NCBI GenBank assembly: GCA_964633505.1
Contig: CAZWHC010000002.1
Location: 55,002 to 119,001 of the forward strand
Origin: an uncultured Rikenellaceae bacterium
GTDB taxonomy: Bacteria > Bacteroidota > Bacteroidia > Bacteroidales > VadinHA17
Direction: 5' to 3'
Length of the DNA stretch: 64,000 nucleotides
Within the stretch, counting starts at the first letter, position 1. The number at the start of each line of letters is the position of its first letter. The notes under the pieces were generated by a model. That model was not told the origin of the DNA. It made no database searches and saw only the letters and a program-made list of their open reading frames with translations. The position numbers and the translations under genes are program-made. Positions 7,344 to 18,022 of this stretch are shown in pieces.

Positions 7344-7551
7344 CTCACCCCGACAAAAGAAAAAGCCTTTCCTCGCCTTCTGGCGGGGGAGGGCTTTGTT
7401 TTTCAGTTGTGTTGAAAGCTTGCTTTCATAAGCAAATGGAAAACAAAGCCCTAAATGAGCGAAGCGAACTAAAGGCTTTTTCTTTTAAGTCACCTCTATG
7501 GAAGTCCGCGAGTCCGACCGGAGGGAGGACGAGCAATCTTCTCACCTCGAC
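7344..7551 (+). mobile_element. ~180-bp nested-hairpin mini-element bounded by two tRNA-Pro att copies
   Basis: CTCACCCCGAC at 7344-7354 and AATCTTCTCACCTCGAC at 7535-7551; perfect 16-bp IR AAAAGAAAAAGCCTTT (7355-7370) / AAAGGCTTTTTCTTTT (7471-7486); inner IR AGGGCTTTGTTTT / AAAACAAAGCCCT. Confidence 0.6.
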
Positions 7552-7559
7552 ATTTAAAT

Positions 7560-7632
7560 AAAATGGCCTTGTAAATCAAATATTTACAGGGCCATTTTCA
7601 TTATTAGTACAAAAAGTAGTACAAAAATCTTT
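7560..7632 (+). repeat. element-end sequence copy 1 (hairpin plus tandem TAGTACAAAAA arm-type sites)
   Basis: Hairpin AAAATGGCCTTGTAAAT-CAAAT-ATTTACAGGGCCATTTT; TAGTACAAAAA at 7605 and 7617; about 90% identical (about 7 differences in 72 bp, counted by hand) to 16677-16748. Confidence 0.85.
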
Positions 7633-8511
7633 AAACTTCAACCGATTGGAAAAGAAGATGTAGTTGATCGTTTACTTGAGATTTATGGTAAACGGAATTA
7701 TTACGAGAAAGCAAAAGGGGGAATGCATGAGTTTTTCGGAATGTGTTATTGCGATGAAGTTCTAAAATACTTATTAGTGGCACGATCGAACCTTGATTGG
7801 GAGAAAAATATAGTTGATGCCACCCTGATGTCAATCATTTTGATTTACCTACATGCAAAACTTGGTGAAGGACTGTCAAATCAAATGAGAATGACAAAAT
7901 CAATGGGGATGAACTATTCTATAAATTGGTGAAAGAAACATAATATGATTTTACCTCCAGAGATTAATCCATGCGAATTAATCTTAGATAAAATTAATTG
8001 GCGTTATGATAAAGGTAAACCAAATATTACTGAAAATGCAGTTGTATTTGCGGATAGCGCAAATAAATTAAAATTAATCACAGAAAGAGCCATTAAATAC
8101 GACATCAAATTTTCTTTGCTATTCACGTCTCCACCCTATTATTCTATTACTGATTATTATGGGGAGCAGTGGTTAAGACACTGGTTATTAGAGGATACAG
8201 CCAGCTCGCAATCTTTAAAAGAGAAATATAAAGGACGATTTATAAATAAACAAGAATATTACGATTTGCTTGATATTGTATTTGGATTTTGTTCAAAAAT
8301 GATGAATGAAAATAGCACAATCTATGTTCGGACAGATAAAAGAGAGTTTACATTCAAATCGACTTTGGAAATTCTAATTAAGCATCTTCCATATCATAAA
8401 GTTGAAGTTATTGATAAGCCGTTGAAAACTAAAACACGAACACAAACAAAACTATACGGAGATAAATCAATGAAGCCAGGCGAAGTGGATATTATATTAA
8501 CAAACAAGTGA
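7630..8511 (+). pseudogene. DNA modification methyltransferase (SPPY-type) pseudogene, 5'-truncated with an in-frame stop
   Basis: ORFs 7723-7932 and 7945-8511 are in the same frame, separated by one TGA (SINW*KKHNM); the frame stays open back into the arm repeat; FTSPPYY motif IV present, motif I absent. Confidence 0.78.
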
Positions 8512-8595
8512 CTATACTCCAATTTTCGTAATCTTCATGGATGCTTTGCAGTGAGGCAATGTGTAGGTTGAAACTTTAGCTTTAATAGTCTGTAA

Positions 8596-10578
8596 TTAAT
8601 TCAATTCCTCAAATCCAATTGTTCTCAAGTATTCAAAAATAGGATCATAAAAAGAAGAATTACGTGTTGGATCATCTTCGCTTCCAAAGGGAACTACTAT
8701 TACCATTCCCTGTCGAGCACGGGTTAGCAAAACTCGATAAGCATTTTTTAAATATGCCTGTCTTTCAGCCTTTCTAATTTGATTCCATCGGTCACCAACA
8801 AAAGACCTGTACTCCCAACCATTTGAGGAATATCTGAAATCTGCATCCCAGGTAACACAAACCCAATCAAGTTCCAAACCTTGAATATCGAATTCTGTTG
8901 CAACAGACTCGAGATAAAAGGATGACCGTACATCTTGCTTTCCATCAAGAAACCAATGTATTGGATCCATCGGAGATCTAACATCAATTGAGTGAGGTTT
9001 TAATCGTTCTGCTTGGGAAGACACAACAATTCCAAAACGTTCTGTTCCTCTTGCTTGTTTTTTTAACCACTGCTTAGCCTTTTTAAGTTCGCGGGTTATA
9101 ACAATTGGGTATTTTGATTTTACCTTGTTAAGTGTTTTTCGTGCCTCCTCTATCTCAAGATCGAGTAATTGTTTTACAAGTAGTGATACATTTTCTGCCC
9201 TAAATGAACGCATAGATACAGAAAGGTGTAAGTTTTCATCATAGAATACATTTGGCCTGTTTGATAAATCTTTGAGAATTTCTCCGGCTCCGTACTCACT
9301 ATCAGTCAACCTTGGGGAAATGTAAATGTGCCAATCTGGAAATGATCGATTAAGAGATTCAATCCACTCACCTATTCCAGCCTCTCCTGTATTAATTTCT
9401 TGTCCCCCACCTACTAAACATACGATCACAGCCCAATCTTTATGTCGGTCAAGACAGGAAATTAAGAATTCAGGTTCAGACTTCATAAATCCCGGGAAAT
9501 CTTTTTTCCTAAGCATGAAATTGGCTGTTTGTTCAAGGTTCCAAGCACGCTGACTTTCATCAAAAAGTGCTATATGTTCGATTGGGGGAGCATCTATATC
9601 CTTAAGACAGTCATCCCTGAAATTATGGACATTCTGAATAAATAGTTTAACTTCCCTGAAAGCATCACCTTTTCTTTGTTTTATCCCAACTTCTTTACCA
9701 TGATTAACCTTATCCCTCGCGAGAGCCTCACGGAGAATGTTAACAAGTGGACCATTTCCAGATAAAAACACACTGTAAAGTTCAGATGACTTATCTATAT
9801 GGGTTGTAGCTATATTTAGTCCTACCAGGGTTTTACCTGCACCAGGAACGCCGGTTAAGAAACATATTGATTTATGCTTTTCGTTTTTAGAAATTTGTAT
9901 AATAGATGCAATTTCGTCTGAAGTTGTACTCAAATTAATTGCACTAGCATCACTTCTGGATATTTCTGAAACAGAGTGACCACTGTAAAGTGCCATCGCT
10001 GCTTCTATAATAGTCGGTGTGGGACTGTACCTTCCATTTTCCCAAATGGTCTTATCTATTACATTCTCTTCTTCATTTATTAGTAACACTTTATCAATAA
10101 CATTGCTAATGAGATCCTTATTACATTTGATTGGACTTAGAAGCTTATCATCATATGATGTAAAAGATATTAATGTTTCAGAAAGTTTAGCCTCAGTGGA
10201 AATCAGAACAGGAGCTATGTATTTATCATGACTCGTCTCATGGAAGTTTTTCAAGTCAAGTGCATAATCCCAAACCTGGTCGATAGCATGCATTGGAAAT
10301 TCACGTTCACCAACTTTAAATTCAAGAATGAAAATTACAGATTGTATTAAGAGCACTACATCAATTCTTTGACCCATTCGAGGTATAGAATATTCAAAAT
10401 AAATTCCACCGCTATATTTTGAAAGAACACTTTGTAAGATTCTAATCTCTTCTCTCCAAGCACTTTTCTGACCTAGTTCATCAGCGAATTTGCTCAATAT
10501 AGCCATTTGCCCAATAATTTCTTCAGGTTTAGTTACATTGAAGTTATCAATAGTATCGCTATAATAAGAACGGTTCAT
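8596..10578 (-). CDS. DUF2075-domain (Schlafen group 3-like) SF1 helicase with N-terminal PD-(D/E)xK-like domain, paralog 2
   Basis: RIDVVLL...LEFK nuclease-like motif; Walker A GVPGAGKT; FDESQR; QGLELDW; [13 protein letters not shown]. Confidence 0.88.
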
Positions 10579-10648
10579 TCAATCTGTTCTTGGGTTGAAA
10601 TTTTATATAAATTCTGATTAGAAGACTTTTTTAATATCTTTTACAAAT

Positions 10649-12529
10649 TTACATTTCCATCCTCTCTTTAAAATACTTTTCAGTCTGTTTATCAGTGAAA
10701 TAAACATAGCACCCTTTCATTCCCCTGCTAAGAAGTGTCCGGTATATATTCTTGACATGCTTTTCGAAATTATCTACACTTCTTTTCAGCATCGGGTCTT
10801 TGGTGGCAGTTATATCTGCCGACAATTTTCCGGAAGTATTATCAACACACAAATCATTACCAATTATCACTCCAATATAATCGAACTCAAATCCCTGGGC
10901 AGTATAAATACAACCTACCTGTTTAATTCCTTCCGGGCGATACGCCCACTCATACCACCTGACATAACCTTTTGGGATTGAGGTTATTTTATCATGTGTC
11001 TCCCATGGCATTGCAAAATCCCCGATCTTCACATCTTTAATAAGTTCACCATTACTATTTGTTTTACTGCTCCATGGCCAGCAGAATCCGGCAACCATCC
11101 TTGCAGAGTTTGGTTTCTCTTTCTCTTTTTCATTAAGGAGATCCATTATCTCCTGCGGTGAGGAAAAAATCCTGAAATCGAACTGGTCCTCTTTCCTGAA
11201 AGTCCTCACCTCATCAGTGTATCCAAGAACCGATTCGATCCATAACAAGTAATCGTTAGACCCCATGCACCTGTATTGAGTTTCCAGAGTAACCTCATGA
11301 ATACCTGCATTAAATTTTGCTGCAGCCTCTCTTATAAGACTTGAACTTCCAACCTCTGATGAACGTACATTCTGCCTGTCATCGATGAAGAAAACAGTTG
11401 TTTTAGCACACCTAACCAGCTGCTCCATCTGTGGCATATCTGTCCTGTCTTCCGGTTTAGTGTACTGATGGTTACTATTTTTTTCTATCCTGTGAGCTTC
11501 ATCAATAAGAAGTATATCAAATTCATTTTCCTTTGTCCTGCTGGGGATGAAACGGTAGAGATTTGAGAACATTATTTCTCCCCCCCTGCCGACCAGCTTT
11601 TGTAGTCCGGATGTGAACGGTTTTGATTTGCATCCGTAGAGAACATTCTTTTTCCTGATTGCAGCTTCGGCAAGTATATTCAGTGCGATAACTGATTTGC
11701 CTGTGCCAGGTCCGCCATGAACAATAATAACAGATTTTTCATTCTTTTTTGCCGACATCCTGTACCTTGCCCAGATGAGGTTCTTGGCAACAAGCTGCTC
11801 GTTAAGTAATGAGAACACGACATCATTTTTAATGATCCTGTGCACATTCTCAAGCAACTTCTTTGAAGGATGCAGACGGCTCTGCATAAACCGGTTAAAT
11901 ATCTCAAACCCGGAACCGTTTTCAAGAAGTTCTCTGATCCGGTTCCCAAGTAACTTTGTGTCTTCTTTAGTAAAGAGAGGAAATTCTGCTATCAGATCTT
12001 TGTAAACCGGACTGTGAAGACCCTTCCCTTCTGTTCTTGAGTAGTTATGACAATAGGCACAACTGAAAAGTGAGAGAGTCGGTTTTTTCTCAAACTCTTC
12101 AACAAATCCTTTCATGTAATTGTGATAACCCTTTACTTGCTGTGATGGGTGAGGCACAATCCGTTCCCTGCCACCGGTATAAGTTTCAACAAAGTTACCC
12201 TCCTCTACCAATTCCTTTACATTTGACCACTGTTTGAGTTCAATGAGGATAACATTTGAAATGTCGTTTGTCCCTTTTCCGAAAAGCAGGCAATCGAGAC
12301 GGCTCTGATTATATGGTACTTCATATTCGAGAGCAACAAAAGTGTCGTGTATTTTACCCAGTTCCAGCAGATCCCTCACTCTCGAAAGACTGTTTTGCCA
12401 GGATACAAATTCAGGAATACCGGGATCCTTACCAAGCCTTGCTTTATAGTTATCGGTCATGATATCAGAGATGGTATTTTCCCTGACATCATCTATAAAC
12501 CTTTCGGAAGGTGCCTGGTAGATCAGCAT
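10649..12529 (-). CDS. DUF2075-domain (Schlafen group 3-like) SF1 helicase with N-terminal PD-(D/E)xK-like domain, paralog 1
   Basis: RLDCLL...IELKQW; Walker A GGPGTGKS; IDEAHR; GCIYTAQGFEFDY; NIYRTLLSRGMKG. Confidence 0.9.
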   Translation of the reverse strand: MLIYQAPSERFIDDVRENTISDIMTDNYKARLGKDPGIPEFVSWQNSLSRVRDLLELGKIHDTFVALEYEVPYNQSRLDCLLFGKGTNDISNVILIELKQWSNVKELVEEGNFVETYTGGRERIVPHPSQQVKGYHNYMKGFVEEFEKKPTLSLFSCAYCHNYSRTEGKGLHSPVYKDLIAEFPLFTKEDTKLLGNRIRELLENGSGFEIFNRFMQSRLHPSKKLLENVHRIIKNDVVFSLLNEQLVAKNLIWARYRMSAKKNEKSVIIVHGGPGTGKSVIALNILAEAAIRKKNVLYGCKSKPFTSGLQKLVGRGGEIMFSNLYRFIPSRTKENEFDILLIDEAHRIEKNSNHQYTKPEDRTDMPQMEQLVRCAKTTVFFIDDRQNVRSSEVGSSSLIREAAAKFNAGIHEVTLETQYRCMGSNDYLLWIESVLGYTDEVRTFRKEDQFDFRIFSSPQEIMDLLNEKEKEKPNSARMVAGFCWPWSSKTNSNGELIKDVKIGDFAMPWETHDKITSIPKGYVRWYEWAYRPEGIKQVGCIYTAQGFEFDYIGVIIGNDLCVDNTSGKLSADITATKDPMLKRSVDNFEKHVKNIYRTLLSRGMKGCYVYFTDKQTEKYFKERMEM

Positions 12530-12532
12530 TGG

Positions 12533-12871
12533 CTATAGTTCGTTGTATTTTTTCGCACTTCCCTTTGATTTCTCGACAGGGTATTTCTCATTATTCTTCC
12601 TGATCTTTTCAAGAACTATCTCCTTTAGGTCAAAACCATGTTTTTCTACCAGTAAAAGACTGAATGCAAGTACATCAGCGAGTTCTTCCTTCAGTTTATT
12701 CTTGTCAACAAGTTCCGATTCCTCAGTTGTTTTCCAGAGGAACAGTTCATTTAACTCTGCGGCCTCAATTGAAATTGCAAGGGCAAGGTCCTTTGAATTA
12801 TGGAATTGTTCCCAGTGTCTGGCATCACGGAACTTAGTCAACTCATCTATAAGTATTTGAAACTCATTCAT
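12533..12871 (-). CDS. MazG-like nucleotide pyrophosphohydrolase
   Basis: FRDARHWEQFHNSKDLALAISIEAAELNELF, EELADVL, NNEKYPVEKSKG. Confidence 0.92.
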   Translation of the reverse strand: MNEFQILIDELTKFRDARHWEQFHNSKDLALAISIEAAELNELFLWKTTEESELVDKNKLKEELADVLAFSLLLVEKHGFDLKEIVLEKIRKNNEKYPVEKSKGSAKKYNEL

Positions 12872-12994
12872 TGCAAAAGTATTTGAACCACTAATTTATT
12901 GAATTTATCATGGAAAGTTGCCTGAATTAATACTATATGGACAACTTATGAATAAAATATTCAACTATCTTGTTGTTTGACAGTATTTTATTCT

Positions 12995-13520
12995 TTGCAT
13001 AAAGATATCACGGTAATATGTATCAATTTTGTAATTAAGGGAATCAAATCCCTATTTTTGAGCAGCTTTAGCTGTTGTTCCACTACCGGCAAAAGGATCA
13101 ATTATTAACTGATTTGGTGCTGTAGTTGTCAGAACAATTCTTTCTATCAATAATTCCGGAATTTAGCATGGATGGTTAGTTTTCTCTTTGCTGACATTCT
13201 TTACCTGGTTTATTTCCCGCCAGTCATAAAGTTTTGTTCCAGTTTTGCCTTATGTTATTCTTTGTTAGATTCGTTTATCATTCAGATTTTTATATTCCTG
13301 TCGAACTTTTCGGAAATCAGGCTTACATCCCCACCAACTGATTAACCGGCTTTGTATACCTGTTTTGGAATTATACACCCAGCATACAATCTGTTCGTAT
13401 TTCTCATTAAATGCTTTTGGAATCAAATGATTTCTTAATGTTTCTAATTTGAAATCTTCTGAAACAGCTTATAGATAAAGAGTTACAGAGCAGGGTTGTT
13501 TAAATAAGAAAATATTAGGG
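12995..13520 (-). pseudogene. beta-class (N4/N6) DNA methyltransferase pseudogene, not in the ORF track
   Basis: Manual translation gives ...CWVYNSKTGIQSRLISWWGCKPDFRKV...KRI*QRIT*GKTGTKLYDWREINQVKNVSKEKTNHPC*IPELLIERIV...IIDPFAGSGTTAKAAQK*G; motif I at 13073-13099; at least 4 in-frame stops; boundaries approximate. Confidence 0.85.
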
Positions 13521-13559
13521 AAAATATGCAATCCAGGTTCTGGTAAAATGAAACACTAG

Positions 13560-14486
13560 TCAACTTCCATTAAAGAGTAATGTCTCAAGCTTTGAAAGCA
13601 ACTCTTTGTGTTTGCCGGGATTGGATTTAATCAGATTTTGAAGATTCAGAAGTTTCCATTGGACAGCAGACATATCCTTAAGTCCTTTAACTGGAAACTG
13701 ATCCCAATCAGGTTCCCCACGTTTAAAACTCAGTAAAAAGAAGCGGTCCGCACCGGTTAGACTTGAATTTACTGTCTCGATAAGTTTTTCACGGGTATTC
13801 TCAAAATCTTCATATGTAAAAGCAATGTCAGACATTCCCTGAAACTGGTTATCAAATACTGTCCGCTGATCCAGAAGATGAGGTTGCAGAACCTCGTGCA
13901 TTGTACGCATATGGCTAACAAGAGCTTGAATGAAACCGTATTTTACATTTTCATTATAACCAGATTCCTGAAATAATAAATACACATCAAATAGATCCCT
14001 TGGATGTTGCCGATCAAGTGCGGCACATATTTTTCCACCAAATAGTTCTGCTTCTGATACTACCTGAATTGCAGCAAACTTTTTGAATCTTTCCTGCACA
14101 TTTTCATTTACCTGAAGTAATCTTACTGGATGCAAATGGCCTCTTGTTATGGTATTAACTTCGACTTTTATTTGTGCACTCTGAGATTGGACTAACAATT
14201 TGATATCATTTCCTTCAATTGTATGATTGTTTACAGTAATTCCATGAATTGATTTCGTTATTCGTTCCCTTATTCGGCCAAGTGAATCAGAAATATTGGT
14301 CAGGGCGGTTTCCCTGTTATCAAATGGCAGGTAAGTGAGGTCGATATCGACCGATAAGCGGGGCATATTCCGTAAGAAAAGATTTATGGCAGTTCCACCC
14401 TTCAACGCAAGAGTCTTCTCGGTTGCTATGTGGGGTATCACTTGCAGAAGCAGATCAGCCTGATTTAAATAAGATTGATTGATCAT
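13560..14486 (-). CDS. type IV TA toxin, nucleotidyltransferase AbiEii/AbiGii family
   Basis: LKGGTAINLF..MPRLSVDIDL, GKICAALDRQHPRDLFD. Confidence 0.93.
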   Translation of the reverse strand: MINQSYLNQADLLLQVIPHIATEKTLALKGGTAINLFLRNMPRLSVDIDLTYLPFDNRETALTNISDSLGRIRERITKSIHGITVNNHTIEGNDIKLLVQSQSAQIKVEVNTITRGHLHPVRLLQVNENVQERFKKFAAIQVVSEAELFGGKICAALDRQHPRDLFDVYLLFQESGYNENVKYGFIQALVSHMRTMHEVLQPHLLDQRTVFDNQFQGMSDIAFTYEDFENTREKLIETVNSSLTGADRFFLLSFKRGEPDWDQFPVKGLKDMSAVQWKLLNLQNLIKSNPGKHKELLSKLETLLFNGS

Positions 14487-15250
14487 TATACCGTTATTTC
14501 TTTGGGTACTGATATTTTGTATTTTGATATATAAATTCCCCCTTTTACAATTACTCTGTCACCGGTTCCTAATTCTATCCTGGTTTGATCAACAAAATCA
14601 AGCCATTGATGTCTGGCTTTAGAAGCCATAAATAGAAAAAGCCGTTTTACTTTTATGGAACTGCAGTTTTCAAGCAATTCCTGCAGGACTTTTGGGCGAA
14701 GATTTACAAGACCTTCAAGTATTTGATATCCTTCCATCATTTCGAACCGATCAGGAGCCAGGTACAAACATTCAAGTATTGCACGTTCAGGGCATGATAA
14801 TTGAAGTTTCAGGCCATCTCGAGAATATTCAAACAAAGCTGAGTTTGCAGGAAGGAACTTAGTTTTTACATGTATTATCTGGGTGCTCCATTCCTGGTTG
14901 AGAAACCACTTTGGCAGTTTAACATATTGTGGTGAAAACAGATAGAGTGGTTCCTTCTCCATCCTTACATAATGGGATAATCCTTGAAGAGATATGGATG
15001 TTAAACCACCAACATGTACTTGCAATTCTGTTTGTCTTTGTAAGGAGTTCAAGGCTCCTGTCCATTTTACATTTTCATTTGGACGTTTGAATGCTCCGAT
15101 TCCATATGATTCAAGCCAGCCGCTTTTCAGATAATATTGTTGCAGATCTCTGGAGAAACCATTTTTCTCAAGCCAGGATGCAAGAAGTACTGTTCCAGGA
15201 ATATGGCTGGACAGGAGACTCATTAATTTTTTATCATTATTAGTAGTCAT
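14486..15250 (-). CDS. type IV TA antitoxin, AbiEi family
   Basis: VHVGGLTSISLQGLSHY, SCPERAILE, LRPKVLQELLENCSSIKVKRLFL; stop overlaps the toxin start. Confidence 0.92.
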   Translation of the reverse strand: MTTNNDKKLMSLLSSHIPGTVLLASWLEKNGFSRDLQQYYLKSGWLESYGIGAFKRPNENVKWTGALNSLQRQTELQVHVGGLTSISLQGLSHYVRMEKEPLYLFSPQYVKLPKWFLNQEWSTQIIHVKTKFLPANSALFEYSRDGLKLQLSCPERAILECLYLAPDRFEMMEGYQILEGLVNLRPKVLQELLENCSSIKVKRLFLFMASKARHQWLDFVDQTRIELGTGDRVIVKGGIYISKYKISVPKEITV

Positions 15251-15399: not shown

Positions 15400-16010
15400 T
15401 TAATTAGAACCGAACCCAGTTATACTATCCACTGGATTTGTTCTGGTATTACTATACAAATCGTAATCAAGAATCAATAAAACCATTTCATCCAGTATTT
15501 CTCCAGGTTCATATTGGTCAGATGCACTGACGAATATGAATCCATCATTGACTTTAATTTTGCCATGAAAACACTTGTCGAATCCGGCATTACCTTTCCC
15601 GGCTTTGGCCAAAAAAATCTCAGTGAACTCAATTACTATATTTTCTGCCTGCAGAGGTGAACAATCGAATATTTTGAAGGACTCAATTAGGAAAAATTCA
15701 CATGAAGCCGTGCAATAACAAAGAGTGAAAAGGACAGGATAAGACAACAGATTTTGTTGTGCCAGGTAAAGGCTGTTTAATATTCTGCCTGTTCTTCCTT
15801 TACCATCACCAAAAGGGTAAATCGATTAAAATTGATAATGAAGAAGTGCCAGCTTAATAATCGGATCAAGTTTACAAAAGTCAGATTCGTTTATAAATAG
15901 CTCAAGATGTTTAAGTTTCTCTCTTATAACAACTTCACAGCATGGTGGAGTATAAGTCTCACAAAGTCCCTTAAGTTCTCCCAAACTCCTGGCATTTTTG
16001 GTTTTTTCGT
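15400..16010 (-). pseudogene. decayed Fic-family protein (internal deletion, stop, eroded active site) fused in frame to an unrelated fragment
   Basis: One frame reads NARSLGELKGLCET-YTPPCCEVVIREKL...HYQF*SIYPFGDGKGRTGRILN...LSYPVLF (Fic motif HPFxDGNGRxGR degenerate, 15784-15840) and continues into ORF 15400-15747. Confidence 0.8.
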
Positions 16011-16141: not shown

Positions 16142-16624
16142 ATGTGGAAACCAATTTCAATTGATCGGTATGTAAAAATTCATTTGAGGAAATATCCGAA
16201 TGAAAATGAAAAGACACTTAGAATGCGGATTGATGCTGCGCTGGACTACTATAAAAACGGTATAAAATGCCAATGCGGAAAAGATATCTGGATTGTTGGT
16301 TCGACGGCTGCTCCTTTTGGTTGCTTCACCTGTATTACAGGGAAAGATCATCCTCGAGGTGATTATGAAATTGATACAGCTCTTGACAAGAGAGATAAGG
16401 AAGGAAGGAGGCATATTGATGAGATGGATCCGCGGCATATTGCCGGAATATTCGATGACGATGGATATGAGATCAGGAAGGAAACCATCAAGATGCAGCC
16501 ACTCTGTTTAACATGCATAAAAAATAACAGTGATGATTGGGAAGATGAAGTTTTATGTAATCTGAACCGAAATGATCAGGCTGATGAGAAAGAGTTCAAA
16601 TGTGGGGAATATAAGAAATTGTAA
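16142..16624 (+). CDS. hypothetical Cys-rich (putative Zn-binding) protein
   Basis: 160 aa; CQC, CFTC, CLTC and further Cys residues. Confidence 0.7.
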   Translation: MWKPISIDRYVKIHLRKYPNENEKTLRMRIDAALDYYKNGIKCQCGKDIWIVGSTAAPFGCFTCITGKDHPRGDYEIDTALDKRDKEGRRHIDEMDPRHIAGIFDDDGYEIRKETIKMQPLCLTCIKNNSDDWEDEVLCNLNRNDQADEKEFKCGEYKKL

Positions 16625-16748: not shown

Positions 16749-16880
16749 TTTCAGATTTCAATAAATAAGACCAGTCGCTAATAATCCATTGAAAATTAGT
16801 ATGTATGGAAATGAAAAAAAGAACAAAGTTTTTGTTTTTATTTCTGTAATGCATTATATTTGGTGCATAATAGAAATAAA

Positions 16881-17498
16881 ATGAATTTCATTGAATTCCG
16901 AAACAAGTTTCTATCCCTGGCATGCTTTACAACAAACCAGGTGTATGCAGCCTATCCGGATTTTAACAGGAACAATCTGGTACACTGGGTAAGGAAGGGC
17001 TACCTGATCAGGCTTCGACAAGGTTTTTATACCTTCCCTGAATATAAGGAATCAACAGACTTTATGCTCTATTTTGCTAACATTATATACAAGCCCTCTT
17101 ACATATCGTTACAAACAGCTTTATCTTTCTATGGAATTATCCCTGAGGCTGTACCAGAGGTAACAAGTGTGACAACCCTAAAGACAAACACATTCAGCAA
17201 TGTTTTCGGTGTGTATTCATATAAGAATGTCAAGCCTGATTTGATGTTCGGATATGATCTGAGGGAGATGGAAGGAGGTAGAAGGGTCATGTTTGCCACC
17301 CCTGAAAAGGCATTAGCAGACCTGCTCTATCTGTATCCATTTTATAATACAGAACGTGAACTTGCAGAATTGCGTCTTGATGAATCATATATGGAGGATG
17401 ACTTTAATACAGAGCGATTTATGGAATTTTCTTACCGTATTGGCAGCAAAGCACTTCTGAATCGCATTAATTTGCTTAGAAAAGTCCATAACCTTTAA
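16881..17498 (+). CDS. AbiEi-like antitoxin / transcriptional regulator (COG5340-like), no adjacent toxin
   Basis: N-terminal wHTH (GYLIRLRQGFY), IYKPSYISLQTALSFYGIIPE, ATPEKALADLLY; likely ATG at 16881. Confidence 0.85.
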   Translation: MNFIEFRNKFLSLACFTTNQVYAAYPDFNRNNLVHWVRKGYLIRLRQGFYTFPEYKESTDFMLYFANIIYKPSYISLQTALSFYGIIPEAVPEVTSVTTLKTNTFSNVFGVYSYKNVKPDLMFGYDLREMEGGRRVMFATPEKALADLLYLYPFYNTERELAELRLDESYMEDDFNTERFMEFSYRIGSKALLNRINLLRKVHNL

Positions 17499-17524
17499 TA
17501 AAATCCATATGATAGACCTGAACA

Positions 17525-18022
17525 ATGAACTCAGATGACGATGACGAAATTATTGAGCCGGAAAAGATTCCTATATTCCGGAAAGGAGAGGAAATATATG
17601 ACCTTGTAACCAGGATTACCGATCTTATACCTGAGGATAACGAACACCTGATGTTTGTAAAATCATGTATGCTGGACGACGCCGTACAGCTGACTGTAAA
17701 AGTAGCAGGTGCTGAGGCAGCTGGATTGTATGATCTTAAAATGGAAAATGCTGCCTTAATACGTAAAGCTGCGCGCGACCTGATGGTGCAACAACATTCG
17801 CTCGATATGTTTGGTTTTGAAAATGTGGAATATTATCAAATGGTAAGAAACCTTATTGAAGAATACAGGTTGCTGTTTATTGACTGGGTTGCAGGATTTG
17901 ATAAATGGGATTATATAATAGACCGGTGGGGCCTTTTTAATCCTCCTGGTGTTGGCCCTTTCGACAAAGACCCTGATGATGATATACCGTTTCATGGTTT
18001 CGAAGAAGACCCCGAAGATTGA
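17525..18022 (+). CDS. conserved helical hypothetical protein with acidic termini
   Basis: 165-aa ORF; GAEAAGLYDLKMENA..IRKAAR pattern. Confidence 0.75.
   Translation: MNSDDDDEIIEPEKIPIFRKGEEIYDLVTRITDLIPEDNEHLMFVKSCMLDDAVQLTVKVAGAEAAGLYDLKMENAALIRKAARDLMVQQHSLDMFGFENVEYYQMVRNLIEEYRLLFIDWVAGFDKWDYIIDRWGLFNPPGVGPFDKDPDDDIPFHGFEEDPED

Follow-up and report, generated by a model that had tools for sequence, protein, structure and literature searches.

A translationally coupled MazG-like/DUF2075 gene pair beside a PDC-S41 gene in a Bacteroidales defence island

We analysed a stretch of 64,000 nucleotides (the window) from an uncultured Rikenellaceae bacterium of the order Bacteroidales (contig CAZWHC010000002.1, assembly GCA_964633505.1). 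The subject was a cassette of three minus-strand genes, encoding a MazG-like protein of 112 amino acids (aa) and two nuclease-helicases of the DUF2075 type, of 626 and 660 aa. An earlier reading of the window, made from the letters alone (the sequence-only reading), had proposed that the three genes form a single anti-phage module, possibly heteromeric, combining nucleotide depletion with a nuclease. The comparison with other genomes pointed to two separable modules lying side by side: a conserved pair of the MazG-like and the 626-aa gene, and an autonomous gene, that of the 660-aa protein, belonging to the PADLOC defence candidate PDC-S41. Both modules are probably anti-phage, and to this reading as a whole we assign a probability of about 0.55. 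The genes concerned are the following:

12533..12871, minus strand: MazG-like gene, 112 aa, first gene of the conserved pair, intact (open reading frame list)
10649..12529, minus strand: 626-aa nuclease-helicase gene ("A626"), second gene of the conserved pair, intact (open reading frame list)
10579..10648, minus strand: 70-bp spacer between the two helicase genes (read directly from the sequence)
8596..10578, minus strand: 660-aa nuclease-helicase gene ("B660"), PADLOC PDC-S41 member, intact (open reading frame list)

The three proteins and their genes

The open reading frame list and the direct reading of the sequence agreed on three intact, adjoining minus-strand genes, separated by 3 bp between the MazG stop codon and the start of the 626-aa gene (12530-12532) and by 70 bp between the helicase genes, as the sequence-only reading had described them. 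That reading had also taken intactness as a sign of selection. The ratios of nonsynonymous to synonymous substitutions (dN/dS) against relatives bear this out: at 0.02–0.10 for all three genes (0.03–0.07 for MazG, 0.05–0.10 for the 660-aa gene), they indicate strong purifying selection throughout the cassette. A scan of the 70-bp spacer found no terminator-like site. The sites from a sigma-70 scan, whose model does not cover Bacteroidota promoters, were not above shuffled expectation. Among the RNA runs searched, none carried sequence of the locus.

The 112-aa protein matched the Pfam family MazG-like (PF12643) with 64.7 bits against a cut-off of 27 (E = 9.6e-18). The best of its solved relatives was 4qgp (2e-17), and the dCTP pyrophosphatase 1 (DCTPP1) entries 6sqw and 2a3q were also matched (1.4e-16). 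The alignment with DCTPP1 spanned nearly the whole protein, including the RxWxQFH and ExxE...ExxD motifs. In 63 homologs, the metal-binding residues E36, E39, E63 and D66 of the motif E-x2-E-x2-E...E-x2-D were invariant and E42 was 97% conserved; R18, W20 and H24 were likewise invariant, and K27 was 95% conserved. MazG had no match in PADLOC v2, and the sole match in PHROGs was that of MazG to a phage pyrophosphatase family. NCBIfam gave no informative match to any of the three proteins. By its motifs and alignments, MazG is a predicted nucleoside triphosphate (NTP) pyrophosphohydrolase of the all-alpha, DCTPP1-like type.

The 626-aa protein matched PF09848 (DUF2075, or Schlafen group 3 helicase) at 3e-83 and, weakly, NERD in Pfam. 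It has an N-terminal PD-(D/E)xK nuclease domain (residues ~38-160) with the motif residues E68, R77-L-D79 and E97-L-K99, followed by a helicase domain of the superfamily 1B (SF1B)/DUF2075 type (265-613) with the Walker A motif GGPGTGKS (272-279) and the Walker B motif DEAH (343-346). The nuclease and Walker residues were invariant in family alignments of 51 sequences from two subfamilies. An AlphaFold2 model from this 51-sequence alignment reached a predicted local distance difference test score (pLDDT) of 85.9 and a predicted template-modelling score of 0.81, superseding an earlier model from a shallow alignment of 17 sequences (pLDDT 61). In the model, the N-terminus has the order alpha-beta-beta-beta-alpha-beta, with E68, D79 and E97/K99 on the first three strands. 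Taken by themselves, the motifs and the order of secondary structure elements are as expected for a restriction-endonuclease-like fold. Searched as a whole with Foldseek, the model matched the SF1B helicases RecD2, Dda, SLFN11, Dna2, Upf1 and Ighmbp2. In PADLOC, the 626-aa protein had weak, partial matches to PDC-S41 (4e-14), Nhi and AbiO; at 4e-14 only, we do not count it as a PDC-S41 member.

The 660-aa protein also matched PF09848 (1.4e-80). Its motif residues are E62, R71-I-D73 and E86-F-K88 in the nuclease part, GVPGAGKT (243-250) in Walker A and DESQ (340-343) in Walker B, all invariant in the alignment of its own family. The PADLOC model of PDC-S41 (PDLC05014) matched it at E = 2.7e-284 with 942.6 bits, residues 1-659 aligning to model positions 1-653 of 657. 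By this match it is an end-to-end member of PDC-S41, a single-gene defence candidate. PADLOC entries of the PDC type are predictions not known to rest on phage assays, and our literature search found no mention of PDC-S41.

The sequence-only reading had seen a nuclease-like motif at the N-terminus and intact Walker A and B motifs in both large proteins, and their invariance in both families agrees with it. It had also called the two strongly divergent paralogs. In a profile-profile comparison the 626-aa protein (39-616) aligned over almost the full length to the 660-aa protein (36-633) with 21% identity and a probability of 94.7, which confirms this. A profile search of the PDB gave no match for the 626-aa family and a single marginal one for the 660-aa family (homoserine kinase, E = 0.0095).

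The MazG/626-aa pair and its association with PDC-S41

The genome and metagenome scans were based on peptide patterns and returned at most 80 loci each; the fractions below describe those samples, with kinship ignored. Many of the loci are from long-read metagenome-assembled genomes, in which indel errors may account for some of the fragmented genes. Homologs of the 626-aa protein were collected from 80 genome loci, of which 72 included upstream sequence. A MazG gene lay directly upstream, on the same strand, in 56 of the 72, and the gap to the helicase gene was at most 13 nt in 48 of these 56, with overlaps of 4 nt and 1 nt among them. The 626-aa family, at 41–94% identity, spans Bacteroidota, Desulfobacterota, Planctomycetota, bacteria of the candidate phyla radiation, Omnitrophota and several archaeal lineages; the loci with the pair come from these groups. 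We confirmed 118 relatives among 185,579 genomes (one per species; a pattern-limited scan of genome_contigs), in both Bacteria and Archaea. A profile search gave 1,526 clusters of relatives (clustered at 50% identity, E ≤1e-30).

The pair was also found with a helicase subfamily only 31–36% identical to the 626-aa protein of the window. This was the case on a plasmid of Priestia aryabhattai, where a protein with a McrB-like N-terminal domain precedes the pair, on a plasmid of Halalkalicoccus jeotgali, and on the chromosomes of Saccharibacillus brassicae and Desulfosporosinus. Adjacency this broad, extending to a diverged helicase subfamily, marks MazG and the 626-aa helicase as a conserved two-gene unit. 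In both Bacteria and Archaea the two are translationally coupled. The pair was present as well in the record of the Microcystis phage Mwe-JY31 (L169, PP438423, 3657-5863) and in three IMG/VR contigs. Mwe-JY31 is deposited as a complete phage genome of 22 kb, in which the two genes carry the annotation "hypothetical protein"; its MazG is 59% identical to that of the window. Of 2.9 million IMG/VR contigs, only 8 had a relative, so viral carriage is rare.

A full-length homolog of the 626-aa protein without MazG was found in 12 loci (L006, L007, L036, L042, L053, L054, L056, L057, L068, L074, L076 and L079), of which L068 alone keeps a short MazG remnant. There was no fusion of MazG to the helicase among the homologs listed or in the eight longer representatives scanned. 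Among the papers listed by the literature searches, none combined MazG with DUF2075 or Nhi. The MazG-DUF2075 pair is thus uncatalogued, being absent from PADLOC v2 and from the searched literature.

Of the 64 loci with downstream sequence, 12 had PDC-S41 near the pair and the other 52 (~81%) lacked it. In eleven of these 12, PDC-S41 followed the helicase gene in the same orientation, directly in nine and at a distance of 1–1.5 kb in two (L019 and L036). These loci belong to Bacteroidales, Omnitrophota, Planctomycetia and one unclassified bacterium. PDC-S41 also followed MazG-DUF2075 pairs with a helicase of another subfamily (L136, L141 and L154). The sequence-only reading had set the recurrence of the second paralog beside MazG-DUF2075 elsewhere as a check on its proposal, and the 12 loci, from several phyla, provide it. 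Seen from the other side, among the 38 PDC-S41 loci whose upstream sequence reached 2.6 kb or more, 4 had the pair upstream and 34 (~89%) were without it. No gene family was conserved as a neighbour of PDC-S41 homologs across 80 metagenome loci. PDC-S41 behaves as an autonomous single gene.

The identities to the window proteins differed between the genes of one locus. In L037 the helicase was 58% and PDC-S41 86% identical, and in L078 the values were 42% and 72%; such discordance indicates repeated, independent juxtaposition. PDC-S41 was intact where MazG was absent (L006, L042, L053 and L074) and where the 626-aa gene was fragmented or a remnant (L026 and L036). In X3 and X5, two metagenomes from biofilms, the dominant strain retains window positions 10662-13653, with MazG and the 626-aa gene, at a coverage of 20–49x. 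The stretch with the methyltransferase fragment (see below) and PDC-S41 reached 0–5x, and window 7627-10662 is replaced by 7,420 other bases. The breakpoint at 10662 lies within the final codons of the 626-aa gene. These contig data show which variants were present, and rare ones may exist beside them. Taken together, the many loci without a partner, the discordant identities and the replacement between strains argue that the slot downstream of the pair is a site of variable cargo, with PDC-S41 as one frequent occupant.

Several other arrangements were seen around this slot. In L036, the C-terminal end of a 626-aa homolog survives as a remnant (8745-9017; 81% identity over residues 535-625) immediately upstream of PDC-S41, beside a full-length homolog that belongs to a different lineage (59% identity); this looks like the vestige of a recombinational cassette exchange. 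Tandem DUF2075 paralogs without PDC-S41 were found on a plasmid of Hymenobacter canadensis, with two genes of ~620 aa (L162, NZ_CP114769, 1404-5390). In L031 (6001-10077), MazG and the 626-aa homolog are followed by a different DUF2075 protein of 720 aa. We also considered PDC-S41 as a replacement for MazG; MazG was present in 6 of 11 loci with PDC-S41 and in 50 of 61 without it, which is a weak trend.

Fusions, gene neighbours and the defence island

Relatives of the 626-aa protein were found fused to other domains: TIR (C-terminal), PNP_UDP_1 (N-terminal), N6 DNA methylase (N-terminal) and PIF1 (C-terminal), in the proteins P0484, P0451, P0475 and P0427. Judged by length, about 19 of the 80 genome loci, or roughly a quarter, encode a longer form of 780–840 aa, and Pfam confirmed a Peptidase_S24 domain in all three of those scanned (L012, L042 and L078). 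The forms of this type include those of L011, L012, L016, L019, L042, L053 and L078, among others, and the proteins P0055, P0066, P0092, P0111, P0382 and P0449. The C-terminal Peptidase_S24 domain is of the LexA/UmuD type, with the catalytic serine (GESM) and lysine (TVK) present. This suggests self-cleavage, triggered by RecA and single-stranded DNA, as a possible switch.

In PADLOC, the immediate neighbours of the 626-aa loci were most often HNH, SoFic, PDC-S02, PDC-S04 and PDC-S24. The recurrent neighbour clusters were a ~310-aa HNH_2 endonuclease, Fic/SoFic, C5 methylases, ORF6N, Bro-N and HipA. The HNH_2 endonuclease, with an unannotated N-terminus of ~180 aa, stood beside both helicase families, in 16 loci (L006, L019, L041, L046, L073, L087, L091, L124, L144, L156, L157 and L160, among others). 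Its best PDB match, over the HNH part only, was 6yex (1.3e-7), which we take to be the EVE-HNH enzyme VcaM4I. Together with the McrB-N protein of the Priestia plasmid and a DUF3883 protein in Streptomyces, the HNH_2 protein points to a possible link with modification-dependent restriction. DUF2075 next to modification-dependent nucleases has been noted earlier (PMC6765204).

Genes for a helix-turn-helix (HTH) and a Peptidase_M78 (ImmA/IrrE-like) domain were found between MazG and the helicase in L005 (4157-5733) and just downstream of the helicase in L007 (7979-8970). Regulators of this type respond to DNA damage. The S24 fusions and the HTH/Peptidase_M78 neighbours suggest that some members are coupled to signals from DNA damage or single-stranded DNA. 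With its various fusions, the 626-aa helicase family looks like a modular immune scaffold.

In the window, the cassette is part of an island bounded by ordinary genes at ~7.1 kb and ~18.2 kb, with these further features:

7945-8511, plus strand: N-terminal fragment of a beta-class methyltransferase, with the TSPPY motif IV and no motif I; weak PADLOC match to MTase_II
12968-13426, minus strand: C-terminal pseudogene of a beta-class, YhdJ-like methyltransferase, with HPC*IP, DPFAGSGTT and in-frame stops in the three-frame translation
13560-14486, minus strand: AbiEii, intact (Pfam AbiEii 8.7e-35; PADLOC AbiEii 4.7e-115)
14486-15250, minus strand: AbiEi, intact (Pfam AbiEi_3 1.3e-53; PADLOC AbiEi 3.9e-85)
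~15400-15990, minus strand: Fic pseudogene, with an in-frame stop after LLHYQF, the degenerate motif YPFGDGKGRTGR and the catalytic histidine lost
16142-16624, plus strand: cysteine-rich open reading frame of 160 aa without a meaningful match, upstream of the second AbiEi-like gene
16860-17498, plus strand: second AbiEi-like gene (PADLOC 3.1e-78)
17525-18022, plus strand: acidic protein of 165 aa without a family match, after the second AbiEi-like gene and in place of an AbiEii toxin

The cassette is thus set in a defence island on the chromosome of a Bacteroidales bacterium. AbiEi and AbiEii, a type IV toxin-antitoxin or abortive infection system, lie directly upstream of the cassette and are not part of the module; the same arrangement was found in L061. 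As the sequence-only reading had stated, the methyltransferase and Fic neighbours are decayed, the former in two fragments, the latter with its in-frame stop and missing histidine. The Fic pseudogene was recognized by 41% identity over residues 152-244 (tblastn with the Fic protein from L002). The two methyltransferase fragments are complementary, one having the TSPPY motif IV and the other HP..P and the DPFAGSGTT motif I, and once joined they give a continuous alignment with full-length YhdJ-like methylases. This fits a methyltransferase gene split by the inversion of a ~4.9-kb segment that carries the three-gene cassette. The methyltransferase was also considered as a fourth component and set aside, because it is absent from related loci, except for a 29-aa remnant in L061.

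The second AbiEi-like gene and the 165-aa gene were conserved as a pair in L001 and L066. Relative to the homologs of window 16860-18022, the cassette in L001 has the opposite orientation. At the left edge of the island (7355-7486 and 7555-7603) there was a cluster of strong inverted repeats, with perfect arms of 16 nt at a distance of 100 nt, arms of 20 nt (90% complementarity) and arms of 22 nt (86%), all in a strain-variable stretch. Another strain variant in X3/X5 lacks 7367-7454. The sequence of a loose end at 7345, GGGTCGCAGGTTCGAATCC, resembles the T-arm of a tRNA, so in other strains the island may sit at an integration hotspot of the tRNA type. No tRNA gene was found in the window.

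Possible functions, rival explanations and known systems

An anti-phage role, as proposed by the sequence-only reading, is plausible given the membership of the 660-aa protein in PDC-S41, the AbiE genes next door, and the TIR, PNP, S24 and N6-methylase fusions in relatives of the 626-aa protein. By analogy with Nhi, both large proteins would translocate, driven by ATP, on foreign DNA or on replication or damage intermediates, and their N-terminal nuclease would degrade the DNA on which they move. MazG would add a nucleotide-hydrolysing arm, as an accessory partner of the 626-aa helicase. Two variants of this arm can be proposed. In one, MazG would constitutively remove non-canonical deoxynucleoside triphosphates (dNTPs), most likely substrates of the dCTP family or the 5-modified dCTP type, and the DNA synthesis of modified-base phages would be starved or "un-modified". 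The likeness to DCTPP1 and the neighbours of the modification-dependent type (HNH_2, McrB-N and DUF3883) favour this variant; DCTPP1 prefers 5-modified dCTP. In the other, to which the PNP and TIR fusions lend weight as an analogy, MazG would be a triggered effector that depletes (d)NTPs. PDC-S41 would be a facultative downstream neighbour, likely kept there for additive or back-up protection or through co-mobilisation, with no obligate complex.

Put more specifically, MazG-DUF2075 may be a new, widespread two-gene anti-phage system. MazG would destroy dNTPs like 5-hydroxymethyl-dCTP, or dCTP, as a host-side mirror of the dCTPase of phage T4, the helicase would destroy exposed or stalled phage DNA, and PDC-S41 would be an optional extension of range or a back-up against inhibitors made by phages. 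We offer this version tentatively and hold it less likely than not.

Several points weigh against the reading of two modules, both probably anti-phage. No experiment on the three proteins or their close relatives turned up in the searched literature, and DefensePredictor describes a defensive role of MazG domains as predicted and never yet validated. The likeness to DCTPP1 does not by itself fix the substrate of MazG. The cross-phylum identity of the 626-aa protein, 55–70%, is unusually high for a defence gene. With respect to the separation of the modules, the TAnnTTTG-like motif TAAATTTG that overlaps the 626-aa stop codon, and bears on a promoter in the spacer, is not kept in relatives. Finally, an adjacency of 19% in fixed order and orientation, with at least two helicase subfamilies, is far above chance and leaves room for a functional interplay with PDC-S41.

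A rival explanation, which goes back to the sequence-only reading, takes the three genes as one obligate, possibly heteromeric system, in which the helicases would hetero-oligomerise and MazG would deplete nucleotides. The recurrent position of PDC-S41, downstream and in the same orientation at 11 of the 12 nearby loci from several taxa and after pairs of another subfamily, argues for it, as do the spacer without a terminator-like site and the tandem DUF2075 paralogs of the Hymenobacter plasmid and L031. Nevertheless, the three genes do not co-occur wherever any one of them is found. Most pair loci lack PDC-S41 (52 of 64) and most PDC-S41 loci lack the pair (34 of 38), PDC-S41 stays intact where MazG is gone or the 626-aa gene is broken, gene identities are discordant between loci, and the dominant strain of X3/X5 keeps the pair with the PDC-S41 segment gone. 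Of the module proposed by the sequence-only reading, the recurrent adjacency stands and the obligate unit does not, and we consider an obligate three-gene system unlikely.

Similarly improbable, in our view, is that the pair is an accessory unit for DNA repair and housecleaning of the nucleotide pool, in which MazG would clear damaged dNTPs, the nuclease-helicase would process damaged or stalled replication intermediates, and PDC-S41 would be an unrelated neighbour. The closest characterised relatives of MazG are housecleaning enzymes; mycobacterial MazG and DCTPP1 remove damaged dNTPs. The very high conservation of the protein across phyla points the same way, as do the LexA-like S24 fusions and the HTH/Peptidase_M78 neighbours, which tie the family to DNA-damage signalling, and a MutT gene nearby on the Priestia plasmid. 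Against such a role speak the rare and patchy distribution of the family over Bacteria and Archaea (118 relatives in 185,579 species genomes by the pattern-limited scan), the occurrence of the pair on plasmids and beside integrases, restriction-modification, AbiE, SoFic and HNH genes, the TIR and PNP fusions, which are hallmarks of immune effectors, and the strain-variable region. Least credible is a toxin-antitoxin-like abortive-infection pair, with MazG restraining a toxic nuclease-helicase until infection. The tight translational coupling of a small upstream gene with a large downstream effector would suit it, and so would an island rich in such systems (AbiE here, HipA in relatives). Yet the helicase stays intact without MazG in about a fifth of loci, and the 12 loci with a full-length helicase and no MazG beyond the short remnant in L068 are hard to square with an essential antitoxin and make this role unlikely for MazG. 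Its catalytic site is complete and under purifying selection, pointing to an enzymatic role and not to pure inhibition.

Under the preferred reading of two separable modules, the defence island is of an ordinary kind and contains one good two-gene candidate that is testable and unnamed. For annotation, the locus is best treated as two systems, PDC-S41 and a MazG-DUF2075 pair still without a name, rather than as a single system of three genes. The sequence-only reading had left it to PADLOC whether a named system was matched; this was so for the 660-aa protein, the catalogued PDC-S41, and not for the pair, which has no entry there. What is new here is that the helicase has a MazG partner and that the two are conserved so widely, neither of which was found in PADLOC v2 or the searched literature; the 660-aa protein was catalogued already. 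Nuclease-helicases of the DUF2075 or Schlafen-helicase type are known single-gene defences, and the MazG-type pyrophosphatases characterised to date are phage proteins or housecleaning enzymes. If the pair is indeed a defence, it would be the first validated one with a MazG domain. Conserved from Bacteroidales to haloarchaea, it is a concrete and easily cloned test case, bearing on whether MazG removes phage-specific nucleotides and whether editing of the nucleotide pool potentiates a helicase-nuclease. Its helicase domain is common to human SLFN11 and SLFN14.

Compared with known systems, the end-to-end match to PDC-S41 is the closest likeness, and the single-gene label fits the lack of a conserved neighbour. 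The difference is the position directly downstream of a MazG-DUF2075 pair, here and in ~10% of PDC-S41's own loci. Nhi (Staphylococcus epidermidis SERP2475) and "Nhi-like" (Millman et al. 2022) are single-gene defence proteins. Both large proteins resemble Nhi in combining, within one polypeptide, a PD-(D/E)xK nuclease at the N-terminus with a DUF2075 SF1B helicase after it, and the fold of the 626-aa protein matches Dda, Upf1 and Dna2, those reported for Nhi. However, the Nhi model PDLC02372 gave only 46.2 bits for the 626-aa protein (positions 187-373 of 470, the helicase core only) and 21.6 bits for the 660-aa protein, and Nhi is without a MazG partner. By these marginal scores both appear related to Nhi by way of the helicase core, and neither is a clear member of its family.

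With respect to MazG, DCTPP1 (RS21-C6) differs from the window protein, which is a stand-alone prokaryotic protein of 112 aa coupled to a nuclease-helicase. Defences that deplete dNTPs (dCTP deaminase, dGTPase), ATP or NAD (the PNP of Detocs, TIR) may share its logic, the removal of a nucleotide that the phage needs, and PNP_UDP_1 or TIR domains are fused to relatives of the 626-aa protein; MazG is nevertheless non-homologous to those enzymes. Hachiman (HamA nuclease and HamB helicase) and the Dna2-type systems are similar in coupling a nuclease to a DNA-surveying helicase, and the S24 and M78 associations suggest sensing of DNA damage, as proposed for Hachiman. In contrast to Hachiman, the nuclease and the helicase are joined here in one polypeptide, the helicase is of SF1B and not of superfamily 2, and the locus has no DUF1837 protein.

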